Positions 3,094 to 24,223 of a DNA stretch of 64,000 bases are shown here, piece after piece. Origin of the DNA: Escherichia coli (lineage in GTDB: Bacteria; Pseudomonadota; Gammaproteobacteria; Enterobacterales; Enterobacteriaceae); assembly GCF_003991155.1 (NCBI RefSeq), contig NZ_CP031293.1; one strand, 5' to 3'. The notes below the pieces were generated by a model. It saw only the letters and a list, made by a program, of their open reading frames with translations. It did no database searches and was not told the DNA's origin. The translations under genes and the position numbers were made by a program. Numbering within the stretch: position 1 is the first letter of the stretch; every line of letters starts with the position of its first letter.

Positions 3094-3112
3094 ATATTGC
3101 TGCTTAAATTAA

Positions 3113-3149: not shown

Positions 3150-3357
3150 GCGAGCAGGATTCCTGATTTTAAACGTGAACGCCGCAGGAAGAATCAACAG
3201 GCATAGAATGGCGTTGGGTGCTTGAGGCTGTCTGGCGTTAAGCATTCGCGAGGTTCCAGATGGACAAAAGCCCCAGGCGATATTTCTATCAACCTGAGGC
3301 CAGCGTTCGAACCTAAGCAATTCGGATGTTAGTCTCTTCTTTGCAGGGAGGCAAGAC

Positions 3358-3510
3358 ATGCTGACAAAATATGCCCTTGTGGCAATCATCGTACTGTGTT
3401 GTACAGTACTGGGATTCACGTTGATGGTAGGCGACTCGTTGTGTGAGTTGAGTATCAGAGAACGTGGTATGGAGTTTAAGGCAGTTCTCGCTTACGAATC
3501 GAAGAAGTAG
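3358..3510 (+). CDS. Hok/Gef-family type I toxin (50 aa, small membrane peptide)
   Basis: ORF below the 60-aa track cutoff, translated by hand: [50 protein letters not shown]; hydrophobic N-terminal helix plus SLCE and AYES motifs shared with Hok/Gef/RelF; GGGAGG Shine-Dalgarno 7 nt upstream. Confidence 0.8.
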
Positions 3511-3515
3511 CCACC

Positions 3516-3575
3516 ACGCGGGGTAAAACCCCGCGTACTGAATTGTGATTGTTTGGCCTCCTGCACCCCTTTTTT
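3516..3575 (+). terminator. hok 3' structure: perfect 9-bp stem-loop, fold-back element complementary to transcript 5' region, then T-tract
   Basis: ACGCGGGGU/ACCCCGCGU stem at 3516-3536; GCCUCCUGCACCC (3557-3569) can pair 11/13 with GGGUGCUUGAGGC at 3216-3228; TTTTTT at 3570-3575. Confidence 0.55.
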
Positions 3576-3635
3576 ATACTCTGTTTCTGGTGGCATTGAT
3601 TTCCTGCAGGCAAGGGAGTAATCATTTCAAACCCA

Positions 3636-4673: not shown

Positions 4674-4924
4674 AGTGAGTCCTTAAATACCATGCAAATT
4701 TTTTTACCGCCATAGTATGAAACTGCCGCTGCGCTAAAACAATTTCAAATCTTCCTAAACGCCCGAAATCCGGTGCCTTAAGCACTTTTTGATATTAGCT
4801 TTGCCAAATCGTTATTCCGTTAAGGAACTACTCATTCTAATTGGTAATTTCATTCGTTCTCTTACGCTCCCTATAGTCGAAACATCTGATGGCAAGAAAA
4901 TAGCGGTATTGCAAAGGAACGGTT

Positions 4925-5833
4925 ATGGATCAAAAACGACTTACCCACCTGCGGCAACTGGAGGCGGAAAGCATCCACATTATTCGCGAGGTGGCTGCAG
5001 AATTCTCAAATCCGGTGATGCTCTACTCTATCGGTAAAGATTCCAGCGTCATGCTGCATCTGGCGCGCAAGGCGTTTTATCCAGGTACGCTGCCTTTCCC
5101 GTTGCTGCATGTCGATACCGGCTGGAAATTCCGCGAGATGTATGAGTTCCGCGATCGTACGGCGAAAGCCTACGGCTGCGAGCTGCTGGTGCATAAAAAC
5201 CCGGAAGGCGTGGCGATGGGGATTAATCCATTCGTACACGGCAGCGCGAAACATACCGATATTATGAAAACTGAAGGCCTGAAACAGGCGCTGAACAAAT
5301 ACGGTTTTGATGCCGCCTTCGGTGGTGCGCGCCGTGACGAAGAGAAATCCCGCGCTAAAGAGCGAATCTACTCTTTCCGTGACCGCTTCCATCGCTGGGA
5401 TCCGAAAAATCAGCGCCCGGAGCTGTGGCACAACTACAACGGGCAAATTAACAAAGGCGAAAGCATCCGCGTCTTCCCGCTCTCTAACTGGACCGAGCAG
5501 GATATCTGGCAATACATCTGGCTGGAAAATATCGACATTGTGCCGCTGTATCTCGCTGCGGAACGTCCGGTTCTGGAACGCGACGGTATGTTGATGATGA
5601 TTGATGACAACCGTATCGACCTGCAACCGGGCGAAGTGATTAAAAAACGGATGGTGCGTTTCCGTACGCTGGGCTGCTGGCCGCTGACCGGTGCGGTGGA
5701 GTCAAATGCACAAACACTGCCGGAGATCATCGAAGAGATGCTGGTTTCCACCACCAGTGAACGTCAGGGCCGCGTGATTGACCGCGACCAGGCGGGGTCT
5801 ATGGAGCTGAAAAAACGTCAGGGGTATTTTTAA
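4925..5833 (+). CDS. cysD: sulfate adenylyltransferase subunit 2
   Basis: 302-aa ORF; PAPS-reductase-like fold protein; first gene of cysDNC. Confidence 0.95.
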
Positions 5834-5834
5834 G

Positions 5835-7262
5835 ATGAACACCGCACTTGCACAACAAATCGCCAATGAAGGCGGCGTCGAAGCCTGGATGATTGCGCAA
5901 CAACATAAAAGCCTGCTGCGTTTTCTGACCTGTGGTAGCGTCGATGACGGCAAAAGTACCCTGATTGGTCGCCTGCTGCACGATACCCGCCAAATCTACG
6001 AAGATCAGCTCTCATCGCTGCATAACGACAGTAAGCGTCACGGCACCCAGGGCGAAAAGCTGGATCTGGCGCTTCTGGTGGATGGTCTGCAAGCCGAGCG
6101 TGAACAGGGCATTACTATTGATGTGGCCTACCGCTATTTCTCTACCGAGAAGCGTAAATTTATTATCGCCGACACACCTGGGCACGAGCAGTACACCCGC
6201 AATATGGCGACCGGCGCATCGACATGCGAACTGGCGATCTTACTGATCGACGCCCGTAAAGGCGTGCTCGATCAAACCCGTCGTCACAGTTTTATCTCCA
6301 CACTGTTGGGGATCAAACATCTGGTCGTGGCGATCAACAAAATGGATCTGGTGGATTACAGTGAAGAGACGTTCACCCGTATTCGTGAAGATTATCTGAC
6401 TTTTGCCGGGCAGCTGCCGGGTAATCTGGATATCCGCTTTGTGCCGCTCTCTGCACTGGAAGGCGACAACGTGGCTTCGCAAAGTGAAAGTATGCCGTGG
6501 TACAGCGGTCCGACACTGCTCGAAGTGCTGGAAACCGTGGAGATCCAGCGAGTGGTGGATGCCCAGCCAATGCGCTTCCCGGTGCAGTACGTTAATCGCC
6601 CGAATCTCGATTTTCGTGGCTACGCCGGAACGCTGGCATCCGGTCGCGTGGAAGTCGGGCAACGTGTCAAAGTGCTGCCCTCTGGTGTGGAATCAAACGT
6701 CGCGCGGATCGTGACCTTTGATGGCGATCGCGAAGAAGCCTTTGCCGGAGAAGCGATCACCCTGGTGCTGACGGATGAAATCGACATTAGCCGTGGCGAT
6801 CTGCTGCTGGCGGCAGACGAAGCGTTACCGGCTGTGCAGAGCGCGTCGGTGGATGTGGTATGGATGGCGGAACAGCCGCTTTCCCCGGGCCAGAGTTATG
6901 ACATCAAAATTGCCGGTAAGAAGACGCGTGCTCGTGTTGATGGCATTCGTTATCAGGTTGATATTAATAACCTTACCCAACGCGAGGTTGAAAACCTGCC
7001 GCTGAACGGCATCGGCCTGGTGGATCTCACTTTTGACGAGCCACTGGTGTTAGATCGTTATCAGCAAAATCCGGTGACCGGTGGGCTGATTTTTATCGAT
7101 CGCCTGAGCAATGTGACCGTGGGTGCCGGTATGGTGCACGAGCCAGTTAGCCAGGCAACTGCTGCGCCATCTCAATTCAGTGTATTCGAACTTGAATTGA
7201 ATGCTCTGGTTCGCCGCCACTTTCCGCACTGGGGCGCGCGCGATTTGCTGGGAGATAAATAA
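5835..7262 (+). CDS. cysN: sulfate adenylyltransferase subunit 1 (GTPase)
   Basis: 475-aa ORF with GTP-binding motifs ([18 protein letters not shown]). Confidence 0.95.
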
Positions 7263-7867
7263 TGGCGCTGCATGACGAAAACGTCGTCTGGCATAGCCAT
7301 CCAGTCACTGTGCAACAACGCGAGCTACACCACGGTCATCGTGGTGTAGTGCTGTGGTTTACCGGCCTCTCCGGGTCCGGTAAATCAACGGTCGCCGGGG
7401 CGCTGGAGGAGGCGTTACATAAACTCGGCGTCAGTACGTATCTGCTGGATGGCGACAATGTTCGCCACGGATTATGCAGCGATCTCGGTTTTAGCGATGC
7501 CGATCGTAAAGAGAATATCCGTCGCGTCGGTGAAGTGGCGAATTTGATGGTTGAAGCCGGACTGGTGGTGCTGACCGCATTTATCTCGCCACACCGCGCC
7601 GAACGCCAGATGGTTCGTGAACGCGTAGGAGAAGGGCGCTTTATCGAAGTGTTTGTCGATACACCGCTGGCGATTTGCGAAGCCCGCGATCCAAAAGGCT
7701 TATATAAGAAAGCGCGTGCCGGTGAACTGCGTAACTTTACGGGAATAGATTCTGTTTACGAAGCGCCTGAATCGGCAGAAATTCATCTCAATGGTGAACA
7801 ATTAGTAACAAATTTGGTACAGCAATTATTAGATCTGTTGAGACAGAACGATATTATCAGATCCTGA
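7262..7867 (+). CDS. cysC: adenylylsulfate (APS) kinase
   Basis: 201-aa ORF; P-loop GLSGSGKST; start overlaps cysN stop. Confidence 0.95.
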
Positions 7868-7916
7868 GACACCACCGGGTTTCCATGCCCGGTTCGTCAA
7901 AGTAACAGGATCAAAT

Positions 7917-8240
7917 ATGCGTAATAGCCATAACATTACACTAACAAATAACGACAGCCTTACTGAGGATGAAGAAACCACATGGTCACTGCCTGGTGCC
8001 GTGGTCGGTTTTATCTCCTGGTTATTTGCGCTGGCGATGCCGATGTTGATTTATGGCTCTAACACGCTGTTCTTCTTTATCTACACCTGGCCTTTCTTTC
8101 TGGCACTGATGCCTGTCGCGGTAGTGGTGGGGATTGCGCTGCATTCATTGATGGACGGAAAGCTACGCTACAGTATTGTTTTCACCCTGATGACAGTAGG
8201 CATTATGTTTGGCGCACTGTTTATGTGGCTACTGGGCTAA
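7917..8240 (+). CDS. ygbE: inner membrane protein YgbE
   Basis: 107-aa hydrophobic ORF in conserved position after cysC. Confidence 0.8.
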   Translation: MRNSHNITLTNNDSLTEDEETTWSLPGAVVGFISWLFALAMPMLIYGSNTLFFFIYTWPFFLALMPVAVVVGIALHSLMDGKLRYSIVFTLMTVGIMFGALFMWLLG

Positions 8241-8433
8241 TTTGTACTTTCTTGTCTCCTCTGTTCATAATTCAAACCGTAACTAATAATGAGATTATGT
8301 TCTGCACGCCCTGGGTATACGTAACAATGGACAAATGTGGTACATTTGCCCGCGTTGTCGCGGTATCCCCAACAGAGGATGTAGAGTCGTCTTCGGATGC
8401 ATGGGATGATGATGCCGTTTTTCAGGGGGCAGG

Positions 8434-8745
8434 ATGGGTAAACTAACGCTGCTGTTGCTGGCTATTCTGGTCTGGCTACAGTATTCGCTGTGGTTCGGTA
8501 AGAACGGTATACATGACTATACCCGCGTCAATGATGATGTGGCGGCACAGCAAGCTACAAACGCGAAACTTAAAGCGCGAAACGATCAACTTTTTGCCGA
8601 AATTGACGATCTCAATGGCGGCCAGGAGGCGCTCGAAGAGCGTGCGCGTAATGAACTCAGCATGACCAGGCCGGGCGAAACTTTTTATCGTCTGGTGCCT
8701 GACGCGTCGAAGCGCGCACAGTCTGCGGGGCAAAACAATCGATAA
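8434..8745 (+). CDS. ftsB: cell division protein FtsB
   Basis: 103-aa ORF with N-terminal TM helix and coiled coil. Confidence 0.9.
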
Positions 8746-8763
8746 ATCAGCCCAGGAATTAAC

Positions 8764-9474
8764 ATGGCAACCACTCATTTGGATGTTTGCGCCGTGGTTC
8801 CGGCGGCCGGATTTGGCCGTCGAATGCAAACGGAATGTCCTAAGCAATATCTCTCAATCGGTAATCAAACCATTCTTGAACACTCGGTGCATGCGCTGCT
8901 GGCGCATCCCCGGGTGACACGTGTCGTCATTGCCATAAGTCCTGGCGATAGCCGTTTTGCAAAACTTCCTCTGGCGAATCATCCGCAAATCACCGTTGTA
9001 GATGGCGGTGATGAGCGTGCCGATTCCGTGCTGGCAGGTTTGAAAGCCGCTGGCGACGCGCAGTGGGTATTGGTGCATGATGCCGCTCGTCCTTGTCTGC
9101 ATCAGGATGACCTCGCGCGATTGTTGGCGTTGAGCGAAACCAGCCGCACGGGAGGGATCCTCGCCGCACCAGTGCGCGATACGATGAAACGTGCCGAACC
9201 GGGCAAAAATGCCATTGCTCATACCGTTGATCGCAACGGCTTATGGCACGCGCTGACGCCGCAATTTTTCCCTCGTGAGCTGTTACATGACTGTCTGACG
9301 CGCGCTCTAAATGAAGGCGCGACTATTACTGACGAAGCCTCGGCGCTGGAATATTGCGGATTTCATCCGCAGTTGGTCGAAGGCCGCGCGGATAACATTA
9401 AAGTCACGCGCCCGGAGGATTTGGCGCTGGCCGAATTTTACCTCACCCGAACCATCCATCAGGAGAATACATAA
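8764..9474 (+). CDS. ispD: 2-C-methyl-D-erythritol 4-phosphate cytidylyltransferase
   Basis: 236-aa ORF; recognised IspD sequence. Confidence 0.95.
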
Positions 9475-9953
9475 TGCGAATTGGACACGGTTTTGACGTA
9501 CACGCCTTTGGCGGTGAAGGCCCAATTATCATTGGTGGCGTGCGCATTCCTTACGAAAAAGGGCTGCTGGCGCATTCTGATGGCGACGTGGCGCTCCATG
9601 CGTTGACCGATGCATTGCTTGGCGCGGCGGCGCTGGGGGATATCGGCAAACTGTTCCCGGATACCGATCCGGCATTTAAAGGTGCCGACAGCCGCGAGCT
9701 GTTGCGCGAAGCCTGGCGTCGTATTCAGGCGAAAGGTTATGCCCTCGGCAACGTCGATGTCACTATCATCGCTCAGGCACCGAAGATGTTGCCGCACATT
9801 CCACAAATGCGCGTGTTTATTGCCGAAGATCTCGGCTGCCATATGGATGATGTTAACGTGAAAGCCACTACTACGGAAAAACTGGGATTTACCGGACGTG
9901 GGGAAGGGATTGCCTGTGAAGCGGTGGCGCTACTCATTAAGGCAACGAAATGA
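9474..9953 (+). CDS. ispF: 2-C-methyl-D-erythritol 2,4-cyclodiphosphate synthase
   Basis: 159-aa ORF; starts [12 protein letters not shown]. Confidence 0.95.
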
Positions 9954-10979
9954 TTGAGTTCGATAATCTCACTTACCTCCACGGCAAACCGCAAGGCACC
10001 GGGCTGCTGAAAGCGAATCCGGAAGACTTTGTGGTGGTGGAAGATTTGGGCTTTGAGCCTGATGGTGAAGGTGAGCATATTCTGGTTAGAATCCTCAAAA
10101 ACGGCTGCAATACCCGTTTTGTGGCGGATGCACTGGCGAAATTCCTGAAAATTCATGCCCGTGAAGTCAGCTTCGCTGGGCAAAAAGATAAACATGCTGT
10201 TACGGAACAGTGGTTTTGTGCACGAGTGCCAGGTAAAGAGATGCCGGACCTCAGTGCTTTTCAACTGGAAGGTTGTCAGGTGCTGGAGTATGCGCGACAC
10301 AAGCGTAAGTTGCGTTTAGGTGCACTAAAAGGTAATGCTTTCACTCTGGTGCTGCGCGATGTAAGCAACCGTGACGATGTTGAACAACGTCTCATCGATA
10401 TTTGCGTAAAAGGCGTGCCTAATTATTTTGGTGCTCAGCGTTTTGGTATTGGCGGTAGCAACTTGCAGGGTGCGCTGCGCTGGGCGCAAACCAATACTCC
10501 GGTGCGCGATCGCAATAAACGGAGTTTTTGGTTGTCGGCAGCCCGCAGTGCGTTGTTTAATCAGATTGTTGCTGAGCGCCTCAAAAAAGCAGACGTTAAT
10601 CAAGTTGTTGACGGCGATGCGCTACAATTAGCCGGACGTGGTAGCTGGTTTGTTGCAACCACCGAAGAACTGGCGGAATTACAGCGTCGCGTCAACGATA
10701 AAGAGCTAATGATAACCGCCGCATTGCCGGGCAGTGGCGAATGGGGAACTCAGTGTGAAGCGCTGGCATTCGAACAAGCAGCTGTCGCCGCAGAAACTGA
10801 ATTACAAGCCTTACTGGTGCGCGAAAAAGTTGAAGCCGCGCGCAGAGCGATGCTGCTGTATCCGCAACAATTAAGCTGGAACTGGTGGGATGACGTCACC
10901 GTAGAAATCCGTTTCTGGCTTCCGGCGGGAAGTTTTGCAACCAGCGTTGTCAGGGAACTTATCAACACAACAGGTGATT

Positions 10980-10999
<20 letters not shown>
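9950..10999 (+). CDS. truD: tRNA pseudouridine(13) synthase
   Basis: 349-aa ORF overlapping ispF stop. Confidence 0.9.
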
Positions 11000-12361
<1,362 letters not shown>

Positions 12362-12500
12362 AACGTGAGGAAATACCTGGATTTTTCCTGGTTATTTTGC
12401 CGCAGGTCAGCGTATCGTGAACATCTTTTCCAGTGTTCAGTATGGTGCCTTGCACGGTAATTATGTCACTGGTTATTAACCAATTTTTCCTGGGGGATAA

Positions 12501-13640
12501 ATGAGCGCGGGAAGCCCAAAATTCACCGTTCGCCGCATTGCGGCTTTGTCACTGGTTTCGCTATGGCTGGCAGGCTGTTCTGACACTTCAAATCCACCGG
12601 CCCCGGTCAGCTCCGTTAATGGCAATGCGCCTGCAAATACCAATTCTGGTATGTTGATTACGCCGCCGCCGAAAATGGGGACGACGTCTACAGCTCAGCA
12701 ACCGCAAATTCAGCCGGTACAGCAGCCACAAATTCAGGCCACTCAACAACCGCAAATCCAGCCGGTGCAGCCAGTAGCTCAGCAGCCGGTACAGATGGAA
12801 AACGGACGCATCGTCTATAACCGTCAGTATGGGAACATTCCGAAAGGCAGTTATAGCGGCAGTACCTATACAGTGAAAAAAGGCGACACACTTTTCTATA
12901 TCGCCTGGATTACTGGCAACGATTTCCGTGACCTTGCTCAGCGCAACAATATTCAGGCACCATACGCGCTGAACGTCGGTCAGACCTTACAGGTGGGGAA
13001 TGCTTCCGGTACGCCAATCACTGGCGGAAATGCCATTACCCAGGCCGACGCAGCAGAGCAAGGAGTTGTGATCAAGCCTGCACAAAATTCCACCGTTGCT
13101 GTTGCTTCGCAACCGACAATTACGTATTCTGAGTCTTCGGGTGAACAGAGTGCTAACAAAATGTTGCCGAACAACAAGCCAACTGCGACCACGGTCACAG
13201 CGCCTGTAACGGTACCAACAGCAAGCACAACCGAGCCGACTGTCAGCAGTACATCAACCAGTACGCCTATCTCCACCTGGCGCTGGCCGACTGAGGGCAA
13301 AGTGATCGAAACCTTTGGCGCTTCTGAGGGGGGCAACAAGGGGATTGATATCGCAGGCAGCAAAGGACAGGCAATTATCGCGACTGCAGATGGACGCGTT
13401 GTTTATGCCGGTAACGCGCTGCGCGGCTACGGTAATCTGATTATCATCAAACATAATGATGATTACCTGAGTGCCTACGCCCATAACGACACAATGCTGG
13501 TCCGGGAACAACAAGAAGTGAAGGCGGGGCAAAAAATAGCAACCATGGGTAGCACCGGAACCAGTTCAACACGCTTGCATTTTGAAATTCGTTACAAGGG
13601 GAAATCCGTAAACCCGCTGCGTTATTTGCCGCAGCGATAA
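12501..13640 (+). CDS. nlpD: murein hydrolase activator lipoprotein NlpD (LysM + M23 peptidase-like)
   Basis: 379-aa ORF; lipobox LAGC; Q/P-rich repeat region; C-terminal M23 domain. Confidence 0.93.
12706..12777 (+). repeat. three in-frame tandem 24-bp repeats inside nlpD encoding (QQPQIQPx)3
   Basis: cagcaaccgcaaattcagccggta / cagcagccacaaattcaggccact / caacaaccgcaaatccagccggtg. Confidence 0.8.
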
Positions 13641-13702
13641 ATCGGCGGAACCAGGCTTTTGCTTGAATGTTCCGTCAAGGGATCACGGGTAGGAGCCACC
13701 TT

Positions 13703-14695
13703 ATGAGTCAGAATACGCTGAAAGTTCATGATTTAAATGAAGATGCGGAATTTGATGAGAACGGAGTTGAGGTTTTTGACGAAAAGGCCTTAGTAGAAGA
13801 GGAACCCAGTGATAACGATTTGGCCGAAGAGGAACTGTTATCGCAGGGAGCCACACAGCGTGTGCTGGACGCGACTCAGCTTTACCTTGGTGAGATTGGT
13901 TATTCACCACTGTTAACGGCCGAAGAAGAAGTTTATTTTGCGCGTCGCGCACTGCGTGGAGATGTTGCCTCTCGCCGCCGGATGATCGAGAGTAACTTGC
14001 GTCTGGTGGTAAAAATTGCCCGCCGTTATGGCAATCGTGGTCTGGCGTTGCTGGATCTTATCGAAGAGGGCAACCTGGGGCTGATCCGCGCGGTAGAGAA
14101 GTTTGACCCGGAACGTGGTTTCCGCTTCTCAACATACGCAACCTGGTGGATTCGCCAGACGATCGAACGGGCGATTATGAACCAAACCCGTACTATTCGT
14201 TTGCCGATTCACATCGTAAAGGAGCTGAACGTTTACCTGCGAACCGCACGTGAGTTGTCCCATAAGCTGGACCACGAACCAAGTGCGGAAGAGATCGCAG
14301 AGCAACTGGATAAGCCAGTTGATGACGTCAGCCGTATGCTTCGTCTTAACGAGCGCATTACCTCGGTAGACACCCCGCTGGGTGGTGATTCCGAAAAAGC
14401 GTTGCTGGACATCCTGGCCGATGAAAAAGAGAATGGTCCGGAAGATACCACGCAAGATGACGATATGAAGCAGAGCATCGTCAAATGGCTGTTCGAGCTG
14501 AACGCCAAACAGCGTGAAGTACTGGCACGTCGATTCGGTTTGCTGGGGTACGAAGCGGCAACACTGGAAGATGTAGGTCGTGAAATTGGCCTCACCCGTG
14601 AACGTGTTCGCCAGATTCAGGTTGAAGGCCTGCGCCGTTTGCGCGAAATCCTGCAAACGCAGGGGCTGAATATCGAAGCGCTGTTCCGCGAGTAA
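13703..14695 (+). CDS. rpoS: RNA polymerase sigma factor RpoS (sigma-38)
   Basis: 330-aa ORF from [11 protein letters not shown]; ORF-track start at 13667 rejected; codon 33 is GAG (Glu). Confidence 0.95.
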
Positions 14696-14712
14696 GTAAG
14701 CATCTGTCAGAA

Positions 14713-14746
14713 AGGCCAGTCTCTTATGAGGCTGGCCTTTTTCTTT
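14713..14746. terminator. hairpin plus T-tract between convergent rpoS and MarR-family gene
   Basis: aggccagtctc / gaggctggcct stem with one mismatch, followed by tttttctttt. Confidence 0.6.
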
Positions 14747-14815
14747 TGTATGGGGAGTTGGTGTGTTTCGTCGCCTGGATAAGACACGTCAGCGTCCCAT
14801 CCGGCAATCAACATC

Positions 14816-15224
14816 CTATTTGCTCATCATCTTGCGCACCAGCTGCATAAACAGCTCCTGCTCTTCTGCACTCAAACGCCCCAAAAATTCCTCATCCACA
14901 CTGTCACCAATCGGTATCGCCGCAGCAAGTACCTTTTCTCCTTCGGCAGTCAGCCAGACAAAGCGTCGCCGCTTATCAGCAGAGTCATGTTCTCGTCTGA
15001 CTAAGCCACGATTTTCCATTCGTGCCAACATTTCTGCCAGCGTTGCTTTGGTGCTGACGGCTGCTTCTATCAGTGCCACCTGTTCGATACCAGGTTTATC
15101 AGCAATGGCGCGCATCACCGCGTACTGTGGTTTGGTCAGATCAGGTAACTCGTGCTGCCAGCGAGCCGTGTGCTGCTGAAAAAGCTGTCGTAACTGATGG
15201 AACGCTTTATTTCGTAACGCCATG
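14816..15224 (-). CDS. MarR/SlyA-family transcriptional regulator
   Basis: Winged-helix MarR-like sequence; ATG at 15224 has a GGAG Shine-Dalgarno, the longer 15256 start does not; divergent from the decarboxylase operon. Confidence 0.75.
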
Positions 15225-15369
15225 TAAACTCCGGGCAAACTATCTGCCGCTATCATAGCGGTTTTTCAGTGACGCAGGGGATGTTGTTACTTTTCAGTGC
15301 TTGCCGCGATGAGAACAGAGGCGTATTTTAATAATAACGTTCGTGTACGAACAATTAAGAGAATTAACA

Positions 15370-15963
15370 ATGAGACTGATCGTCGGGATGACAGGGGCCA
15401 CCGGAGCGCCTCTTGGTGTGGCATTACTGCAAGCGCTGCGGGAGATGCCGAATGTCGAGACTCATCTGGTGATGTCGAAGTGGGCGAAAACCACCATTGA
15501 ACTGGAAACGCCTTACAACGCCCGCGATGTTGCTGCCCTCGCAGACTTCTGCCATAACCCGGCGGATCAGGCCGCAACCATCTCCTCAGGTTCCTTTCGT
15601 ACCGACGGCATGATCGTTATTCCGTGCAGTATGAAAACGCTCGCCGGTATCCGTGCCGGTTACGCCGATGGCCTGGTGGGGCGCGCGGCGGACGTCGTGC
15701 TCAAAGAAGGCCGCAAACTGGTGCTGGTGCCGCGTGAAATGCCGCTTAGCACAATCCATCTCGAAAATATGCTCGCACTTTCGCGCATGGGCGTGGCGAT
15801 GGTGCCGCCGATGCCTGCCTTTTATAACCATCCCGAAACGGTAGATGACATTGTCCACCACGTGGTAGCCCGCGTGCTGGATCAATTTGGCCTCGAACAT
15901 CCTCACGCCAGGCGCTGGCAAGGATTGCCGCAGGCCCGGAATTTTTCTCAGGAGAATGAATAA
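15370..15963 (+). CDS. UbiX-family flavin prenyltransferase (decarboxylase subunit B-like)
   Basis: 197-aa ORF starting MRLIVGMTGATGA, typical UbiX/Pad1 N-terminus; first of three tightly linked genes. Confidence 0.8.
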   Translation: MRLIVGMTGATGAPLGVALLQALREMPNVETHLVMSKWAKTTIELETPYNARDVAALADFCHNPADQAATISSGSFRTDGMIVIPCSMKTLAGIRAGYADGLVGRAADVVLKEGRKLVLVPREMPLSTIHLENMLALSRMGVAMVPPMPAFYNHPETVDDIVHHVVARVLDQFGLEHPHARRWQGLPQARNFSQENE

Positions 15964-17390
15964 TGGCATTTGATGATTTACGCAGCTTTTTACAGGCGCT
16001 CGACGACCATGGGCAATTGCTGAAAATCAGCGAAGAGGTGAACGCGGAACCGGATCTGGCAGCAGCAGCTAACGCCACCGGGCGTATCGGCGACGGCGCG
16101 CCCGCGCTGTGGTTTGATAATATTCGCGGCTTTACCGATGCCCGCGTGGCAATGAACACCATCGGTTCCTGGCAGAACCACGCGATTTCCCTCGGCCTGC
16201 CGCCAAATACCCCGGTTAAAAAACAGATTGATGAGTTTATCCGCCGCTGGGATAACTTCCCGATTGCCCCGGAGCGCCGCGCCAATCCGGCCTGGGCGCA
16301 GAACACCGTTGATGGCGACGAGATCAACCTGTTCGATATCCTGCCGCTGTTTCGTTTAAACGATGGCGATGGCGGTTTCTATCTCGACAAAGCGTGCGTG
16401 GTTTCCCGCGATCCGCTTGATCCGGATAACTTCGGCAAGCAGAACGTCGGCATCTACCGTATGGAAGTGAAGGGTAAGCGTAAGCTCGGTCTGCAACCGG
16501 TGCCGATGCACGATATCGCCCTGCATCTGCATAAAGCGGAAGAGCGCGGTGAAGATCTGCCGATTGCCATCACCCTGGGTAACGACCCGATCATCACCCT
16601 GATGGGGGCCACGCCGCTGAAATACGATCAGTCCGAGTACGAAATGGCGGGCGCGCTGCGCGAAAGTCCGTACCCGATCGCCACCGCTCCGCTGACCGGT
16701 TTTGATGTGCCGTGGGGCTCGGAGGTGATCCTCGAAGGAGTCATCGAAAGCCGCAAACGCGAGATTGAAGGGCCATTCGGTGAGTTTACCGGCCACTACT
16801 CCGGCGGGCGCAATATGACCGTCGTGCGCATTGATAAAGTCTCTTATCGCAGCAAACCCATTTTTGAATCGCTCTATCTCGGGATGCCGTGGACGGAAAT
16901 CGACTACCTGATGGGGCCAGCCACCTGTGTGCCGCTGTATCAACAACTGAAAGCTGAGTTCCCGGAAGTGCAGGCGGTAAACGCCATGTACACCCACGGC
17001 CTGCTGGCGATTATCTCCACCAAAAAACGCTACGGTGGCTTTGCCCGCGCGGTGGGCCTCCGTGCGATGACCACGCCGCACGGTCTGGGCTACGTGAAGA
17101 TGGTGATTATGGTCGATGAAGACGTTGATCCGTTCAACCTGCCGCAGGTGATGTGGGCGCTCTCTTCGAAAGTGAACCCGGCAGGGGATTTGGTGCAGTT
17201 GCCGAATATGTCCGTGCTGGAACTCGACCCTGGCTCAAGTCCGGCGGGGATCACCGACAAGCTGATTATCGACGCCACCACGCCTGTCGCCCCGGACAAC
17301 CGTGGTCACTACAGTCAGCCGGTGGTGGATTTACCGGAAACCAAAGCCTGGGCTGAAAAACTGACCGCTATGCTGGCCGCACGTCAATAA
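15963..17390 (+). CDS. UbiD-family non-oxidative aromatic acid decarboxylase (subunit C-like)
   Basis: 475-aa ORF; start overlaps upstream stop; UbiD-like length and sequence. Confidence 0.8.
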   Translation: MAFDDLRSFLQALDDHGQLLKISEEVNAEPDLAAAANATGRIGDGAPALWFDNIRGFTDARVAMNTIGSWQNHAISLGLPPNTPVKKQIDEFIRRWDNFPIAPERRANPAWAQNTVDGDEINLFDILPLFRLNDGDGGFYLDKACVVSRDPLDPDNFGKQNVGIYRMEVKGKRKLGLQPVPMHDIALHLHKAEERGEDLPIAITLGNDPIITLMGATPLKYDQSEYEMAGALRESPYPIATAPLTGFDVPWGSEVILEGVIESRKREIEGPFGEFTGHYSGGRNMTVVRIDKVSYRSKPIFESLYLGMPWTEIDYLMGPATCVPLYQQLKAEFPEVQAVNAMYTHGLLAIISTKKRYGGFARAVGLRAMTTPHGLGYVKMVIMVDEDVDPFNLPQVMWALSSKVNPAGDLVQLPNMSVLELDPGSSPAGITDKLIIDATTPVAPDNRGHYSQPVVDLPETKAWAEKLTAMLAARQ

Positions 17391-17400
17391 GGAGAACAAG

Positions 17401-17637
17401 ATGATTTGTCCACGTTGTGCCGATGAACAGATTGAAGTGATGGCGAAATCGCCGGTAAAAGATGTCTGGACGGTATATCAGTGCCAGCATTGCCTTTATA
17501 CCTGGCGCGATACCGAACCGCTGCGCCGCACCAGCCGCGAACATTATCCCGAAGCGTTCCGCATGACGCAGAAAGATATTGATGACGCGCCGATGGTGCC
17601 GAGCATCCCGCCGCTGCTGGCGGAAGGTAAGTGTTAA
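17401..17637 (+). CDS. small decarboxylase subunit D-like protein with CxxC...CxxC motif
   Basis: 78-aa ORF MICPRCADEQ...CQHCLYTW, 10 bp downstream of the UbiD-like gene. Confidence 0.65.
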   Translation: MICPRCADEQIEVMAKSPVKDVWTVYQCQHCLYTWRDTEPLRRTSREHYPEAFRMTQKDIDDAPMVPSIPPLLAEGKC

Positions 17638-17646
17638 TAAAAAAGT

Positions 17647-17674
17647 GCCGGGTAGAGGCTTTGCTTTACCCGGC
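17647..17674. terminator. hairpin between convergent decarboxylase operon and pphB
   Basis: gccgggta...tacccggc 8-bp stem. Confidence 0.4.
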
Positions 17675-17678
17675 CACG

Positions 17679-18335
17679 TTATTTAATTTTATAAAACGAT
17701 AACCGTCTGCTTTCCGGCGAGCCGGTATCAATATAAACCTGATTGGCAAATGTCTGGATATTTATAAACATCATATGTCCAAAGATAAAACAGTCGGCAC
17801 CGTTTATTTCTTTTAACTCTCCCTTGAATGATTTCTGCACGCGATCAACAGGCCAGAGTAATTCGCTTTCTGCTATTTCTTTACCAAACTGATATTCATC
17901 ACCCGGATAATCTGCATGTGCGATGACATATTTTATGTTGTCGTTAGTGATTTCAATAATATGTGGAAGGTGATGGAATTTCAGCAACAGATCTATTGCC
18001 TCTTGTTGCTCTGAATCATTTAAATTGAAAAACCAGTCACCACCGCTGGCAAGCCACATATTTCCATCGCCAGTTTCGAATGCCTCAAGCGCCATCGCTT
18101 CGTGGTTGCCTTTAGCCGATGTAAACCAGGGCTGGTTTAGCAGGCGCAGCACGTTAAGACTCTCCGGCCCACGATCAATATTATCGCCGACAGAAATAAG
18201 TAAGTCGGTTTCAGGGCAAAAAGAGAGTTGATGTAAGCGGGATTGTAATAATTGATAGTCACCATGAATATCACCAACGGCCCATATATGGCGATAGTGA
18301 TGGGCATTGATTTTTTGATAGCGTGTAGATGGCAT
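17679..18335 (-). CDS. pphB: serine/threonine protein phosphatase 2
   Basis: 218-aa ORF with metallophosphatase motifs GDIHGD, GDNIDRG, GNHE. Confidence 0.9.
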   Translation of the reverse strand: MPSTRYQKINAHHYRHIWAVGDIHGDYQLLQSRLHQLSFCPETDLLISVGDNIDRGPESLNVLRLLNQPWFTSAKGNHEAMALEAFETGDGNMWLASGGDWFFNLNDSEQQEAIDLLLKFHHLPHIIEITNDNIKYVIAHADYPGDEYQFGKEIAESELLWPVDRVQKSFKGELKEINGADCFIFGHMMFINIQTFANQVYIDTGSPESRRLSFYKIK

Positions 18336-18440
18336 GGTTTTACCCTGTAAAATAAGATTTCCTATTATACAGGGTATTTTTATTTGATTCGTCAGTTGTC
18401 GTTAATATTCCCGATAGCAAAAGACTATCGGGAATTGTTA

Positions 18441-21002
18441 TTACACCAGACTCTTCAAGCGATAAATCCACTCCAGCGCCTGACGCGGAGTCAGTGAATC
18501 CGGGTCGAGGTTTTCCAGTGCCTCGACCGCAGGCGAAGTTTCTTCCGGTAGGGACAGCAAAGACATTTGTGTACCATCCACTTGCGTAGCAGCGGCGTTC
18601 GGCGAAATGCTTTCCAGCTCACGCAGTTTTTGCCGTGCGCGCTTAATAACCTCTTTTGGCACGCCCGCCAGAGCAGCAACCGCCAGGCCGTAGCTTTTGC
18701 TCGCCGCGCCATCCTGCACGCTGTGCATAAAGGCAATGGTGTCGCCGTGCTCCAGCGCATCGAGATGCACGTTGGCGACGCCTTCCATTTTCTCCGGCAG
18801 TTGGGTCAGCTCGAAATAGTGGGTAGCAAACAGCGTCAACGCTTTGATCTTATTTGCCAGATTTTCCGCGCATGCCCACGCCAGCGACAGACCATCGTAA
18901 GTGGAAGTTCCGCGCCCAATCTCATCCATCAGCACCAGACTGTACTCGGTGGCGTTATGTAAAATATTGGCGGTTTCGGTCATCTCCACCATAAAGGTTG
19001 AACGCCCGGATGCCAGATCGTCTGCCGCGCCTACGCGGGTAAAGATACGGTCGATCGGGCCAATCTCGACTTTTTGCGCCGGTACGTAGCTGCCGATATA
19101 CGCCATCAGCGCAATCAACGCGGTCTGGCGCATATAGGTACTTTTACCGCCCATGTTCGGACCGGTAATGATCAACATGCGGCGCTGCGGCGACAGGTTC
19201 AGCGGGTTAGCGATAAACGGCTCATTCAGTACTTGTTCAACTACCGGATGGCGACCTTCGGTAATGCGAATACCCGGTTTATCAATAAAGGTCGGGCAGG
19301 TGTAGTTCAGGGTATAGGCCCGTTCCGCCAGGTTCACCAGCACGTCGAGTTCCGCCAGCGCGCTCGCGCTCTGTTGCAACGCTTCCAGATGCGGCAACAG
19401 CAGGTCGAACAGCTCTTCATAAAGTTGTTTTTCCAGAGCCAGTGCTTTGCCTTTTGAGGTGAGAACTTTATCTTCGTACTCTTTCAGCTCCGGAATAATG
19501 TAACGCTCGGCGTTTTTCAGCGTCTGGCGGCGCATGTAGTTAATCGGTGCCAGATGGCTTTGCCCACGGCTGATCTGAATGTAGTAGCCGTGCACTGCAT
19601 TAAAGCCAACTTTCAGCGTGTCCAGGCCGGTACGTTCACGCTCGCGGACCTCCAGACGCTCCAGATAATCGGTCGCACCGTCAGCCAGCGCGCGCCACTC
19701 ATCCAGCTCTTCGTTATAGCCCGATGCGATAACACCACCGTCGCGTACCAGCACCGGTGGTGTGTCGATGATTGCTCGCTCCAGCAGATCGCGCAGCTCG
19801 GCAAACTCGCCCATCTTCTCACGCAGCGCTTGTACCGGTGCACTATCGACATTTTCTAACTGCGCACGCAACTCCGGCAGTTGCTGGAAAGCGTGGCGCA
19901 TACGGGCCAGATCGCGCGGGCGAGCAGTACGTAACGCCAGACGCGCCAGAATACGTTCCAGGTCGCCCACCTGACGCAGCACAGGCTGTATCTCGGCGGT
20001 GAAATCCTGCAATGCGCCAATAGTTTGCTGGCGCTCAAGCAACACGCGGGTATCGCGCACTGGCATATGCAGCCAGCGTTTCAGCATACGACTACCCATC
20101 GGCGTTACAGTGCAGTCGAGCACTGAAGCCAGCGTGTTTTCCGCACCGCCCGCCAGGTTCTGAGTAATTTCCAGGTTACGACGCGTCGCGGCATCCATAA
20201 TGATGCTGTCCTGCTCACGTTCCATGGTGATAGAACGAATATGCGGCAGGGTCGTGCGTTGGGTATCTTTCGCATACTGCAACAGACAACCGGCAGCACA
20301 AAGTCCGCGCGGCGCGTTCTCGACGCCAAAACCGACCAGATCGCGGGTGCCAAATTGCAGATTCAACTGCTGGCGCGCAGTGTCGATTTCAAACTCCCAC
20401 AGCGGACGACGACGCAGGCCGCGACGACCTTCAATCAGCGACATCTCGGCGAAATCTTCTGCATACAACAGCTCTGCCGGGTTGGTACGTTGCAGCTCTG
20501 CAGCCATCGTTTCGCGGTCCGCCGGTTCGCTAAGGCGAAAACGCCCGGAGCTGATATCCAACGTCGCGTAGCCGAACCCTTTGCTGTCCTGCCAGATAGC
20601 TGCCAGCAGGTTATCCTGACGCTCCTGCAACAGCGCTTCATCGCTGATGGTGCCCGGCGTAACGATACGGACAACTTTGCGCTCGACCGGCCCTTTGCTG
20701 GTCGCCGGATCGCCAATTTGTTCGCAGATGGCAACGGACTCGCCCTGATTCACCAGTTTGGCGAGATAGTTTTCCACCGCATGGTAGGGGATCCCCGCCA
20801 TCGGGATCGGCTCTCCCGCGGAAGCACCGCGTTTGGTCAGTGAAATATCCAGCAGCTGCGAGGCGCGTTTCGCGTCGTCATAAAACAGTTCGTAAAAGTC
20901 ACCCATCCGATAGAACAGCAGGATCTCGGGATGCTGGGCTTTCAGCTTGAGATACTGCTGCATCATTGGCGTATGGGCATCAAAATTTTCTATTGCACTC
21001 AT
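18441..21002 (-). CDS. mutS: DNA mismatch repair protein MutS
   Basis: 853-aa ORF; Walker [10 protein letters not shown]; recognised MutS sequence. Confidence 0.97.
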
Positions 21003-21248
21003 GGAGTTATGTCCGGTTCCCTGATATTAAATGGGGTGTGATGGTTTTTATTTTCGTTGTAATCACATAAGGCGCACATGATACCGGAGTTAATCATTTC
21101 AGGGGAAGAAGCGAACGGCGAGTTCTTGATGGTGATTCCGGGAAAGATGCTGTTTTGCAGCTTTTGCGTGATGCTTATGAAGCAAGTACGCAAAATTGCG
21201 TCGGTTGAATAAACCTCCTCCTTCAGAGCCATAGTCCCCTTTCAAATT

Positions 21249-21271
21249 AAGTTGTAATATAAATACACCTT
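21249..21271 (+). promoter_or_regulatory. imperfect inverted repeat upstream of ygbA, candidate NsrR-type operator
   Basis: aagttgtaata-t-aaatacacctt, 18 bp upstream of ygbA start. Confidence 0.35.
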
Positions 21272-21288
21272 AAGAGTATGGAGGCAGC

Positions 21289-21633
21289 ATGTCCGGCAAG
21301 CGTATCTCTCGTGAAAAACTGACGATTAAAAAAATGATCGATCTTTATCAAGCGAAATGCCCGCAGGCGTCAGCGGAGCCGGAGCATTACGACGCGCTGT
21401 TTGCCTACGCGCAAAAGCGGCTGGATAAATGTGTGTTCGGCGAAGAGAAACCAGCCTGTAAGCAGTGTCCGGTGCACTGTTACCAGCCAGCAAAGCGTGA
21501 AGAGATGAAACAGATTATGCGTTGGGCCGGGCCGCGAATGCTGTGGCGTCATCCGATCTTAACCGTGCGTCATCTCATCGATGACAAGCGTCCGGTGCCG
21601 GAGTTGCCAGAAAAATATCGTCCAAAGAAATAA
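21289..21633 (+). CDS. ygbA: YgbA (nitrous-oxide-stimulated promoter family protein)
   Basis: 114-aa ORF with Cys-rich motifs; divergent from mutS. Confidence 0.85.
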   Translation: MSGKRISREKLTIKKMIDLYQAKCPQASAEPEHYDALFAYAQKRLDKCVFGEEKPACKQCPVHCYQPAKREEMKQIMRWAGPRMLWRHPILTVRHLIDDKRPVPELPEKYRPKK

Positions 21634-21637
21634 ATCT

Positions 21638-21660
21638 GCCGGAGAGCCATACTCTCCGGC
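21638..21660. terminator. hairpin between convergent ygbA and molbindin gene
   Basis: gccggagag-ccata-ctctccggc perfect 9-bp stem. Confidence 0.5.
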
Positions 21661-21671
21661 AAATAAGGCGT

Positions 21672-22100
21672 TTACGCTTTGGTGGCAATCAGGATGGCTG
21701 ATGCTTTGATCAATGCAATAACGCGCGAGCCAGTGGTGAGTTTCATTTCATCCTGACTTTCATTTGTTACCACTGCCACAATTTCAAAACCCGCATCCGT
21801 TTTGATATGGACAGTGGCGTTCACTGCGCCTTCGGTGATTGTCGACACGCTGCCAGCAAACTGGTTGCGAGCAGAGAATTTCAGTCCACAGTCTTCCGTT
21901 GCCAGTGTTACCCACGGGGCTTTAATCAGGGCAATCGCTTCTTTCCCTTTTGCCAGACCAAGAGCCTGCTGGCTGCTGTGTGTAACAATTGCCACCAGCT
22001 TTGCACCACCTGCCAGCGTCAGTTCTACTTCATCATTCACAGCGCCCATTGCTACTGCGCTAACTGTTCCGGTTAATTGATTTCTTGCTGAAACTGCCAT
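21672..22100 (-). CDS. tandem TOBE (Mop) domain molybdate-binding protein (molbindin)
   Basis: 142-aa product from MAVSARNQLTG; two SARNQ-containing repeats; AGGAGG Shine-Dalgarno before ATG at 22100. Confidence 0.75.
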   Translation of the reverse strand: MAVSARNQLTGTVSAVAMGAVNDEVELTLAGGAKLVAIVTHSSQQALGLAKGKEAIALIKAPWVTLATEDCGLKFSARNQFAGSVSTITEGAVNATVHIKTDAGFEIVAVVTNESQDEMKLTTGSRVIALIKASAILIATKA

Positions 22101-22144
22101 ACTGCCTCCTTTCATTGAATGTTGATCGAGTATAACCACATCTG

Positions 22145-24223
22145 TTAAATCAATGCCGATTTATCAATTCCCAGTCGCTTCATCCGTGACAGCAGGGTCG
22201 TGCGTTTCAGCCCCAGACGTTGCGCAGCGCCTTTAGGTCCGGCAACCACGCCGTTAGTTTCTTTCAGCACGCGAACAATCAACTGATATTCATCTTCGCC
22301 CTCCTGAGCGACAACCGTTGCGGCAGGCGGCGTTTCAGGTTCTGGTAAAGCAATATCTGGCAATGACAGCTGCAGCACGTTGCCGCGTGTTAGCAATACC
22401 GCGCGCTCAATGACGTTTTCCAGCTCACGCACGTTGCCCGGCCATTCCATGTTGCTCAGGATGCGCAGCGTCTCGGCAGGAATGCTGTCGATATTGCGCC
22501 CCAGACGACGGGCAATTTTGAAGGTAAAGGCTTTCGCCAGCAGCGGAATATCTTCCGGACGCTCGCGTAGTGGCGGCAGGTGGATCGGGAATACGTTCAG
22601 GCGGTAATAGAGATCGCTACGGAACTCTCGGTCGGCGACCATTTTTTTCAGATCGCGGTTAGTCGCGGCAATTAAACGTACGTCCGTCTGAATGATTTTG
22701 TTGCTGCCAAGACGTTCAAACTCCTGTTCCTGTAATACACGCAGCAACTTCGGCTGTAACTCCAGCGGCATATCGCCCACTTCATCGAGGAATAGTGAGC
22801 TTTTATCCGCCAGTTCAAAACGACCAATGCGCTGAGCGCTGGCACCGGTAAAAGCCCCACGCTCATGACCAAATAGATCGCTTTCCAGCAATCCGGCAGG
22901 CATCGCCGCGCAGTTCATTTTGACCATGCGGCGATTATTACGCCCACTGAGATTATGGATCGCGCGGGCAATCAGCTCTTTACCTGTACCAGTTTCACCG
23001 AGGATCAGCACGGTACTGTCACTTTGCGCCACCATTTCAACTTGTTTAAGTACGCTGTACATGGCTTCGCTGCGGCCAATAATCTCGCCAAATTCACTAT
23101 CAACATTGTTGAGCTGCTCGGTCAGGGCGAGGTTTTCATCAACCAGCCGTTCTTTCAGACGATGAATTTCCTGATAGGCGAGGGCGTTATCGACAGCGAT
23201 TGCCACACGTTCGGCAATCTGGCGCAGTAAGCTCAGATTGGTAGTGGTAAATACTTTCTCTTCGCATTGCGCCAGTTTCAGCACGCCCAGCATGGTGTCG
23301 CCAGACATCAGCGGTAACAGGCACAAGGTTTGAATCTGGTTGCCCCAGGTGTCGAACAACATGCGTTCATAGGGGGCTAAATCGTCCCGCTCGTGGAGAT
23401 TAATCAACAGCATCTCTTTACTTTTGAAGACGCGTTCGGTGAGGGTTCCGGCTTCATCGACTTCGCTCTGTTCGTGGGCGGGATGCTGTTTATCAAGATA
23501 GTGAGTGGAGTAGATGTTGAGTTTGTTTTTACGGTGGCTGCGTAAGACAATGCTGATATCGTCAATGTCGAAATAGTAATGGATTTCTTTGGCGACTTCG
23601 CTGACCAGTTCGTCCATATCCAGGCGGGAAAGCACCGCGTTGGTGATGGCGACCAGGATGCGGAAGTTATCGCGTTCCCGGCATAACAACTCATAGTCGA
23701 CATTGTTAACGACGCGGCTCTGGATTTGTTCGGTGACGACAGAAACGATCTGCGTAAATGTTTGCAGGCGATTGAACTCTTTTTCACTCCACGGGCGATC
23801 GTCATAACGAATAAATTCACAGCCACCAAAAATATGCCCTTCCGCCGCCAGTGGCATCAGGCAATAGTGACCAAATTTGGGGTATAGCCCACCTGCGGCC
23901 AGCTGCGGCCAGGTTTCACAAAATTCTTCGTAACTGCAATGCAGCGTATCAGGGCGCGACAAAATGCTGCGTACCGGACCGTGTGCCAGAACAGTTTCGT
24001 CTTCATATTTAATGGGGGTGTCTTTTTCACGCGACGCGTAATAAGACGCACGTTGAGTCTGCGCTTGCCACAACACAATAGCCGCGTTGTCGGCGAGCGC
24101 AGAACGCTTTACCAGTTGCGAAAGAGCCTCACACAGCGAGGCCAGATCGGGCTGCTGCAATAGTGTCCGAGTGATGTCGAACAACCCTTGTTGTCCGAGA
24201 TCACTCATCGGTGTATATGACAT
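22145..24223 (-). CDS. fhlA: formate hydrogenlyase transcriptional activator (sigma-54 dependent)
   Basis: 692 aa from MSYTPMSDLGQQ; GAF domains plus AAA+ sigma-54 activator motifs ([14 protein letters not shown]) and C-terminal HTH. Confidence 0.95.
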   Translation of the reverse strand: MSYTPMSDLGQQGLFDITRTLLQQPDLASLCEALSQLVKRSALADNAAIVLWQAQTQRASYYASREKDTPIKYEDETVLAHGPVRSILSRPDTLHCSYEEFCETWPQLAAGGLYPKFGHYCLMPLAAEGHIFGGCEFIRYDDRPWSEKEFNRLQTFTQIVSVVTEQIQSRVVNNVDYELLCRERDNFRILVAITNAVLSRLDMDELVSEVAKEIHYYFDIDDISIVLRSHRKNKLNIYSTHYLDKQHPAHEQSEVDEAGTLTERVFKSKEMLLINLHERDDLAPYERMLFDTWGNQIQTLCLLPLMSGDTMLGVLKLAQCEEKVFTTTNLSLLRQIAERVAIAVDNALAYQEIHRLKERLVDENLALTEQLNNVDSEFGEIIGRSEAMYSVLKQVEMVAQSDSTVLILGETGTGKELIARAIHNLSGRNNRRMVKMNCAAMPAGLLESDLFGHERGAFTGASAQRIGRFELADKSSLFLDEVGDMPLELQPKLLRVLQEQEFERLGSNKIIQTDVRLIAATNRDLKKMVADREFRSDLYYRLNVFPIHLPPLRERPEDIPLLAKAFTFKIARRLGRNIDSIPAETLRILSNMEWPGNVRELENVIERAVLLTRGNVLQLSLPDIALPEPETPPAATVVAQEGEDEYQLIVRVLKETNGVVAGPKGAAQRLGLKRTTLLSRMKRLGIDKSALI

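Follow-up and report, generated by a model that had tools for sequence, protein, structure and literature searches.

Gene organization of the rpoS–mutS interval

We analyzed a 64,000-nucleotide stretch of Escherichia coli DNA (contig NZ_CP031293.1 of assembly GCF_003991155.1; hereafter, the window) and focused on the interval between rpoS and mutS, in which hosA, a gene for a MarR-family regulator, lies beside three genes for subunits B, C, and D of a hydroxyarylic acid decarboxylase (HAD). In the list of open reading frames (ORFs), rpoS ends at position 14695, and a terminator scan placed its intrinsic terminator hairpin at 14709–14742 on the plus strand (15 stem pairs followed by the T-run TTTTTCTTTT). 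The hosA gene occupies 14816–15223 on the minus strand and encodes a winged-helix repressor of 135 amino acids (aa); at identical coordinates, RefSeq annotates a MarR-family regulator. The length of 135 aa is counted from the RefSeq/HosA start; an alternative in-frame ATG upstream, at 15256, would give a protein of 146 aa.

The three decarboxylase genes are encoded on the plus strand and diverge from hosA across an intergenic gap of 146 bp. Based on NCBIfam models and Protein Data Bank (PDB) structures, B (15370–15963; 594 bp, 197 aa) was assigned as a UbiX-family flavin prenyltransferase that makes the prenylated flavin mononucleotide (prFMN) cofactor, C (15963–17390; 1428 bp, 475 aa) as the catalytic subunit, a UbiD-family prFMN-dependent decarboxylase, and D (17401–17637; 237 bp, 78 aa) as a zinc-ribbon activator that binds C. 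The genes for B and C overlap by one nucleotide, the last A of the B stop codon TAA (15961–15963) being the first base of the C start codon ATG, and a 10-nt spacer follows the C stop codon, with a GGAG ribosome-binding site ahead of D. The shared strand, order, and sizes of the three genes fit a VdcBCD/BsdBCD/EcdBCD-type cluster, whose genes measure approximately 0.6, 1.4, and 0.2 kb.

Downstream, pphB (17679–18335) and mutS (18441–21002) are both encoded on the minus strand. The terminator scan and the sequence revealed a GC-rich hairpin at 17647–17674, between the convergent genes for D and pphB. Its T-run follows on the minus strand, and the hairpin probably serves as the pphB terminator and closes the B-C-D operon as well. 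The initial annotation of this DNA, made from sequence alone, had described a MarR gene divergent from a three-gene operon (197, 475, and 78 aa) with overlapping or near-abutting junctions between rpoS and pphB, and all of these elements were recovered at the positions that it gave. RefSeq names the products of the identical interval DNA as a MarR regulator and hydroxyarylic acid decarboxylase subunits B, C, and D.

Family assignment of the decarboxylase subunits

The families of B, C, and D were assigned using NCBIfam models with their curated cut-offs, together with matches to PDB structures. Subunit B scored 312.9 bits against the VdcB model NF041206 (cut-off, 290) and 258 bits against the UbiX subfamily model (cut-off, 188), and it was identical in 193 of 197 residues (98%) to the UbiX-like protein of E. 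coli O157:H7 (PDB ID: 1SBZ). Subunit C scored 790 bits against the VdcC model NF041204 (cut-off, 650). Its best structural match was chain A of Sedimentibacter hydroxybenzoicus VdcC (ShVdcC; PDB ID: 7AE4; E = 7.9e-160 over residues 3–471), and the next-best structure reached only E = 1.6e-49. Subunit D scored 121.2 bits against the VdcD model NF041205 (cut-off, 30) and matched chain a of 7AE4 with E = 3.5e-11. These scores above the VdcB, VdcC, and VdcD cut-offs, together with a C gene free of internal stops, indicated that the ORFs did not arise by chance.

Functional residues were also conserved. In the alignment, R166, E269, E274, and L421 of C corresponded to the catalytic residues R168, E273, E278, and L425 of ShVdcC, as numbered in the structural study of VdcCD (PMC8379154). 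C thus retains the Glu-Arg-Glu triad and the Leu of UbiD enzymes, whose counterparts in Fdc1 are E277/R173/E282 and L439. In D, Cys3, Cys6, Cys28, and Cys31 form two CXXC knuckles and coincide in position with the ShVdcD zinc ligands. The two D proteins also share R36 and E39; D of the window exceeds ShVdcD by 10 residues, and its E12 takes the place of the ShVdcD salt-bridge residue R12.

Compared with the O157:H7 allele, the gene for C contained 81 nucleotide differences in 79 changed codons and no internal stops, and the gene for B contained 19 nucleotide and 4 amino-acid differences. Only 3 amino-acid differences resulted from the 81 substitutions in C, and this disproportion points to purifying selection. 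Judged by these matches, B, C, and D are subunits of a non-oxidative hydroxyarylic acid decarboxylase of the VdcBCD/BsdBCD type. The initial annotation had proposed this subunit layout, and the curated cut-offs, the solved structures, and the RefSeq names all agree with it; in both the NCBIfam and the structural comparisons, the proteins grouped with UbiX/UbiD decarboxylase subunits.

Related enzyme families were weighed against this assignment. B belongs to the UbiX superfamily and C to the UbiD superfamily, and C also matched the E. coli UbiD structures 2IDB and 5M1C (E ~5e-47), so that the two proteins might be read as a second ubiquinone UbiX/UbiD pair acting on 3-polyprenyl-4-hydroxybenzoate. 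However, C failed the ubiquinone UbiD equivalog model NF008175/PRK10922 by a wide margin (174.1 bits; cut-off, 788) while passing VdcC. Moreover, the ubiquinone pathway has no counterpart of the VdcD zinc-ribbon subunit encoded here, K-12 makes ubiquinone yet does not carry the locus, and the adjoining regulator answers free 4-hydroxybenzoate. We regard a ubiquinone role for the pair as highly improbable.

A second candidate was an AroY-type protocatechuate (3,4-dihydroxybenzoate) decarboxylase, with C as the enzyme and B and D as helpers. C did match the AroY structures 5O3M (E = 7e-28) and 5NY5 (E = 4e-25), and co-expression of Enterobacter homologues of B and D raises AroY activity according to the literature. 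The VdcC match of C was nevertheless approximately 130 orders of magnitude stronger than its AroY match, AroY is described as needing no D subunit and as being encoded apart from kpdBCD, and the response of HosA is specific to 4-hydroxybenzoate; an AroY-type activity therefore deserves very little credence against the VdcC-type assignment.

Phenylphosphate carboxylase (alpha/beta subunits) was ruled out because a D subunit is encoded and because the family scores fell short of the cut-offs of TIGR02723 (123.2 vs. 564.6 bits) and TIGR02724 (148.4 vs. 468.95 bits). The bagremycin/ferroverdin BagL-BagM-BagN (FevM-FevK-FevL) models NF041230, NF041218, and NF041219 were likewise not passed by the regulator (88.6 bits; cut-off, 230), B (343; cut-off, 420), or C (116.3; cut-off, 1000). 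The likeness to that set goes no further than a related combination of MarR, UbiX, and UbiD proteins.

The HosA regulator, its operator, and the promoters

The MarR protein matched the structure deposited as "Transcriptional regulator HosA" of enteropathogenic E. coli (EPEC; PDB ID: 8AGA) with E = 1.6e-83 and 132 of 134 residues identical (~98.5%), and on this match the MarR gene of the locus is that of the characterized repressor HosA. The study of Roy & Ranjan (Biochemistry, 2016), as summarized in a 2024 preprint, reports that HosA represses its own gene and the hydroxyarylic acid decarboxylase operon, that its binding site is palindromic and located downstream of the transcription start, and that 4-hydroxybenzoate frees HosA from DNA, resulting in induction of the operon. 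Independent groups obtained a dissociation constant of approximately 4.7 µM for 4-hydroxybenzoate, with electrophoretic mobility shift assay and isothermal titration calorimetry, and have used HosA in in-vitro biosensors; a 2026 paper described a 38-fold specific in vivo response of an O157:H7 HosA reporter to 4-hydroxybenzoate. Relief of DNA binding by 4-hydroxybenzoate has been published for the UMN026 and O157:H7 HosA proteins, and by analogy the HosA allele encoded at 14816–15223 would be expected to respond to this ligand.

Alignment of E. coli alleles and comparison with the published 14-bp site identified a 14-bp palindrome, GTTCGTGTACGAAC, at 15339–15352, which ends 17 nt ahead of the start codon of B. 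Four other E. coli alleles carry the perfect palindrome GTTCGTATACGAAC, with which GTTCGTGTACGAAC agrees at 13 of 14 positions, the exception being a central G in place of A. The G variant is likewise found in nature elsewhere, in further Escherichia species, Vibrio ruber, one Erwinia genome, and Nonomuraea. Because both central-base variants occur across genomes, we interpret the G in GTTCGTGTACGAAC as a natural variant rather than as evidence of decay, and on the agreement with the published site we assign GTTCGTGTACGAAC as the HosA operator.

The supplement of a 2018 study in Science Advances (PMC6261655) prints the 14-bp HosA site, with flanks, as CAAGCATATGCTTG. We found that this string and its flanks in the oligonucleotide table correspond to the native E. 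coli sequence (window 15330–15360) read 3' to 5'. A literal search for CAAGCATATGCTTG in the window and the E. coli loci gave no match in the hosA–B intergenic region within three mismatches, because the printed probe runs opposite to the native sequence. Read 5' to 3', CAAGCATATGCTTG denotes a duplex that differs from the native GTTCGTATACGAAC, and genome searches with the printed string would find nothing.

Cross-genus conservation suggested a sigma-70 promoter for B-C-D on the plus strand at 15301–15329, composed of a −35 element TTGCCG (15301–15306), a 17-nt spacer, and a −10 element TATTTT (15324–15329). Across 11 aligned enterobacterial intergenic regions, CTTG (in TTGCCG) and GTA (opening TATTTT) were invariant; the candidate agrees with the consensus at 8 of 12 positions, which is under the threshold of the promoter scan. 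With this promoter, the operator would come just after the transcription start, where the published description also places it. On the hosA side, the leader/promoter region contains a 15-bp palindrome, CCGCTATCATAGCGG, at 15247–15261. Its 13-bp core CGCTATCATAGCG (15249–15261) was invariant in five E. coli alleles, and within its core TATCATAGC (15250–15258) the block tat(c/g)atagc was kept in the 11-genome enterobacterial alignment. The TATGAT on the reverse strand of TATCATAGC is probably the −10 element of hosA.

Distribution of the module in E. coli

Among 5426 complete E. coli genomes, which served as the comparison set, 2379 (44%) contained the full hosA-BCD module, and most of these also kept ygbI–ygbN; the module is not confined to O157-like strains. 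The direct junction of D with pphB, as in the window, was found in 742 genomes, including O157:H7. The hairpin at 17647–17674 is specific to this junction: O157:H7 and PCP06238 have a homologous hairpin, whereas K-12 and strains that carry both gene sets lack it. The K-12-type genome compared contains ygbN-ygbM-otnC-otnK-ltnD-ygbI in the interval and no module, and K-12-type genomes match only the first 46–53 bases of the interval, corresponding to the rpoS terminator. The initial annotation was thus correct in noting that the K-12-type ygbI–ygbN genes are missing from the window, and the decarboxylase gene set does not occupy this position in K-12. The arrangement in the window is O157-like: the module is present, ygbI–ygbN is absent, and D is joined straight to pphB.

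The interval was 100% identical to that of E. coli 2016C-3878. Positions 1–10434 and 8696–23678 of the window were identical to this strain, and the downstream part differed by 8 single-nucleotide polymorphisms and 1 gap over 40.7 kb. The mutS–rpoS region is documented as a polymorphic typing region, with a 2.9-kb segment inserted in O157:H7 and patterns I–IV (PMC4209514), in keeping with the earlier description of the interval as a strain-typing and metabolic marker.

The closest known system is the hosA-HAD locus of E. coli O157:H7, EPEC, and UMN026 (slyA-like hosA, pad1/ecdB, yclC/ecdC, and yclD/ecdD), which has the same four genes in the same order, on the same strands, and at the same position beside rpoS. 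This locus is what LeClerc and Herbelin described as the "2.9-kb" rpoS-proximal segment and PMC4209514 as patterns I/IV; the hairpin at the D–pphB junction of the window also occurs in O157:H7, and the RefSeq product names are identical. The protein identities with O157:H7 were 99.4% for C, 98.7% for D, 98.0% for B, and 95.6% for HosA. The two loci differ only in their alleles, with 3–6% nucleotide divergence from O157; the changes in C, B, and D are nearly all synonymous, whereas in hosA 19 codons differ and 6 of these alter the amino acid.

The module and its operator beyond E. coli

To survey the operator, we scanned one genome per species (298 Gb) with the query GTTCGTNTACGAACAAT, which has 16 specified bases. 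The scan returned 110 hits, about the number expected by chance overall; we therefore treated as meaningful only the 34 loci at which the operator adjoins hosA and/or a B/C homologue, which come from approximately 33 other genomes in three phyla. As an exact-motif search, the scan is biased toward genomes that conserve the operator and is silent on the number of modules without it. In 23 of the 25 loci with an extracted intergenic region, the operator ended 13–36 nt before the first gene.

The enterobacterial loci with the operator belong to other Escherichia species, Salmonella enterica subsp. diarizonae, Citrobacter, Klebsiella, Kluyvera, Kosakonia, Franconibacter, Erwinia, Rahnella, and Pantoea, and those elsewhere to Vibrio ruber, Shewanella mangrovi, Commensalibacter, and the actinobacteria Nocardia, Pseudonocardia, and Nonomuraea. 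HosA is just 47–54% identical in the actinobacteria, Vibrio, Shewanella, and the acetic-acid bacterium Commensalibacter, yet the operator is exact there bar two central bases (loci L017, L030, L118, L079, L022, and L014, among others). The actinobacterial and Shewanella intergenic regions contain two full copies of the operator, and that of E. coli contains one.

The order rpoS-hosA-B-C-D-mutS was also found in Citrobacter, Kluyvera, Kosakonia, and Franconibacter; the loci of Klebsiella spallanzanii and Kluyvera genomosp. 3 stop short of mutS and cover only the rpoS side. Given the same rpoS–mutS placement in other genera, the module is most simply ancestral at this site; loss from the K-12 lineage looks likelier than insertion in O157.

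Two further observations concern the composition of individual loci. In the sole Citrobacter amalonaticus assembly scanned (L067), C and D are seemingly split by frameshifts. In Commensalibacter and two Erwinia genomes (L014, L020, and L064), C directly follows the operator, and no B was detected in the fetched locus.

A diverged haplotype in the clone of the window

Sequence identity varied along the region. The segment from hosA to D was 94–98% identical to that of O157, and rpoS, surE, and pcm were more than 99% identical. Compared with both K-12 and O157:H7, pphB was approximately 90–91% identical, and mutS and truD (9950–10999) approximately 94.5%. The divergence of mutS was nearly all synonymous (141 nucleotide and 3 amino-acid differences). 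Within the interval, E. coli alleles are least conserved (81–90%) in the spacer that separates the rpoS terminator from the hosA stop codon. This spacer contains, at 14773–14806, GCCTGGATAAGACACGTCAGCGTCCCATCCGGCA, which by eye resembles the consensus of a repetitive extragenic palindromic (REP) element.

The interval haplotype was present at 99% identity or more in only about 49–50 of the 5426 complete genomes, and the pphB–mutS allele at 99.9% or more in only 49; the next allele was 97.1% identical, followed by those of IAI39 and CE10 at 96.6%. The clone that carries this allele comprises approximately 49 complete genomes, with human, poultry, livestock, and wastewater sources. The diverged allele fits the known recombinant history of mutS. 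A cryptic Escherichia clade was considered as its source and rejected, in that E. whittamii, Escherichia sp. E1V33, and MOD1-EC7003 were no closer than ordinary E. coli alleles (88–96%). In two bovine E. coli of the clone, MRY15-117 and MRY15-131, pphB is interrupted by IS1.

A diverged haplotype with an altered operator might also mark a decaying remnant, in which the active enzyme and the HosA response have been lost in this lineage. The central substitution in GTTCGTGTACGAAC and the 4–6% divergence from other E. coli alleles are compatible with such a history, and the apparent splitting of C and D in C. amalonaticus shows that loss happens. On the other hand, the four ORFs are full-length and without internal stops, the divergence from O157 is almost all synonymous (in C, 3 amino-acid changes among the 79 changed codons; in B, 4 among 19), the catalytic and zinc-binding residues are intact, and the G variant of the operator is widespread in other species with intact modules. 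The odds are heavily against decay, and the data favor an intact hosA-HAD locus.

Other features of the window

Several features outside the rpoS–mutS interval were also recorded. Between cysH (2359–3093) and iap (3636–4673), the region 3216–3510 contains a type I toxin-antitoxin locus of the hok/sok type, with an Rfam sok score of 110 bits and a 50-aa ORF of the Hok family (Hok/Gef in RefSeq). K-12 carries its type I-E CRISPR-Cas locus at the corresponding position; neither a CRISPR array nor cas genes were found in the window.

Between ygbA and fhlA, a 142-aa protein with two molybdenum-pterin-binding (Mop/TOBE) domains is encoded at 21672–22100 on the minus strand. PCP06238 also encodes this protein, whereas the K-12-type and O157:H7 loci that were examined lack it; it corresponds to the CFT073 "c3292" marker of PMC4209514.

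Between hycI and ascB, a 251-aa ORF (36028–36783, plus strand; hypothetical in RefSeq) has a hydrophobic N-terminus that by eye resembles a signal peptide. It gave no Pfam or NCBIfam family matches and was covered to at least 80% in 1461 of the 5426 complete E. coli genomes. The 881-base query used here ended in ~120 bases (~36752–36870) that comprise the final ~30 bases of the ORF and the spacer before ascB; this stretch had many matches per genome (lowest, 6; median, 37), which indicates a dispersed repeat, REP-like by eye. Finally, 60579–61170 contains a tandem array of tRNA-Ser(GCU) and then four identical tRNA-Arg(ACG) genes; 2016C-3878 has five tRNA-Arg genes.

Proposed function and relationship to known systems

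Taken together, the four protein identities, the conserved active-site residues and zinc ligands, the arrangement of the operon, and the operator identify the locus, with a confidence that we consider very high, as hosA-HAD, the E. coli operon for a non-oxidative and reversible hydroxyarylic acid decarboxylase beside its own repressor. Nothing in the sequence itself contradicts this identification. Certain observations qualify the details: the central A-to-G change breaks the perfect symmetry of the operator, a consensus promoter scan of 14600–17800 returned no sigma-70 sites, and HosA has been linked to motility in EPEC, so that targets beyond the operon may exist. By its conserved residues, the enzyme of this strain would be expected to be active as a decarboxylase.

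The locus would work as follows, each step being proposed for this strain from sequence identity. In the absence of inducer, a MarR-type dimer of HosA would sit on the 14-bp palindrome just past the transcription start and block transcription of both B-C-D and hosA. 4-Hydroxybenzoate entering the cell would bind HosA and release it from the DNA, and the operon would then be transcribed. B would make reduced prFMN as a UbiX-type flavin prenyltransferase, and the UbiD-type C would take up this cofactor; the zinc-ribbon D would steady the Glu-Arg-Glu-bearing loops of C, giving an active C-D complex. This complex would strip CO2 from its substrates, converting 4-hydroxybenzoate to phenol and vanillate to guaiacol, and it would be labile to oxygen and work best without it.

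Several of these steps have been established experimentally in homologues from Sedimentibacter and Bacillus, including the requirement of VdcC for D, the substrates, and the oxygen-labile cofactor, together with the C6D6 hexamer. The role of B-type proteins as suppliers of prFMN is stated in the AroY/kpdBCD literature on muconate engineering, and the O157:H7 enzyme serves as the reference "Had" in a multi-step pathway from tyrosine to phenol in gut bacteria. The O157:H7 genes were reportedly cloned by Lupa and co-workers in 2005 and their decarboxylase activity confirmed.

The same B-C-D set is found in VdcCD of S. hydroxybenzoicus (PDB IDs: 7AE4, 7AE5, and 7AE7) and in BsdBCD/VdcBCD of Bacillus subtilis and Streptomyces sp. 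D7. The regulator in the window is of the MarR type, unlike that of B. subtilis, where Bsd is controlled by the LysR-type BsdA. KpdBCD of Klebsiella and EcdBCD of Enterobacter cloacae, both used in muconate engineering, are orthologous enterobacterial operons with the same naming, with ~88–97% protein identity for B and C and ~73–81% for HosA. The Klebsiella loci share the layout of hosA, operator, and BCD with the window, and B of the KpdB/EcdB type supplies prFMN and boosts AroY. The operon is called EcdBCD or "Had" in O157:H7 and KpdBCD in Klebsiella, and is of the same kind as VdcBCD/BsdBCD. The system is already known, with crystal structures for three of the four proteins or their close homologues.

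More tentatively, and with somewhat less than even confidence, we suggest that the repressor, operator, and B-C-D may travel as one self-contained cassette, inducible by 4-hydroxybenzoate, across phyla, the operator being kept despite the drift of HosA. The clone of the window would carry an old hosA–mutS haplotype, synonymously diverged by 4–6%, with an operator change that could alter basal expression.

As a long-established marker of the polymorphic rpoS–mutS region, the locus adds little that is new; here it is of practical use for typing. HosA is already a standard part of 4-hydroxybenzoate biosensors. For the biology of E. coli, the module represents a known accessory metabolic trait, concerned with the detoxification or turnover of phenolic acids and with the production of phenol in the gut.

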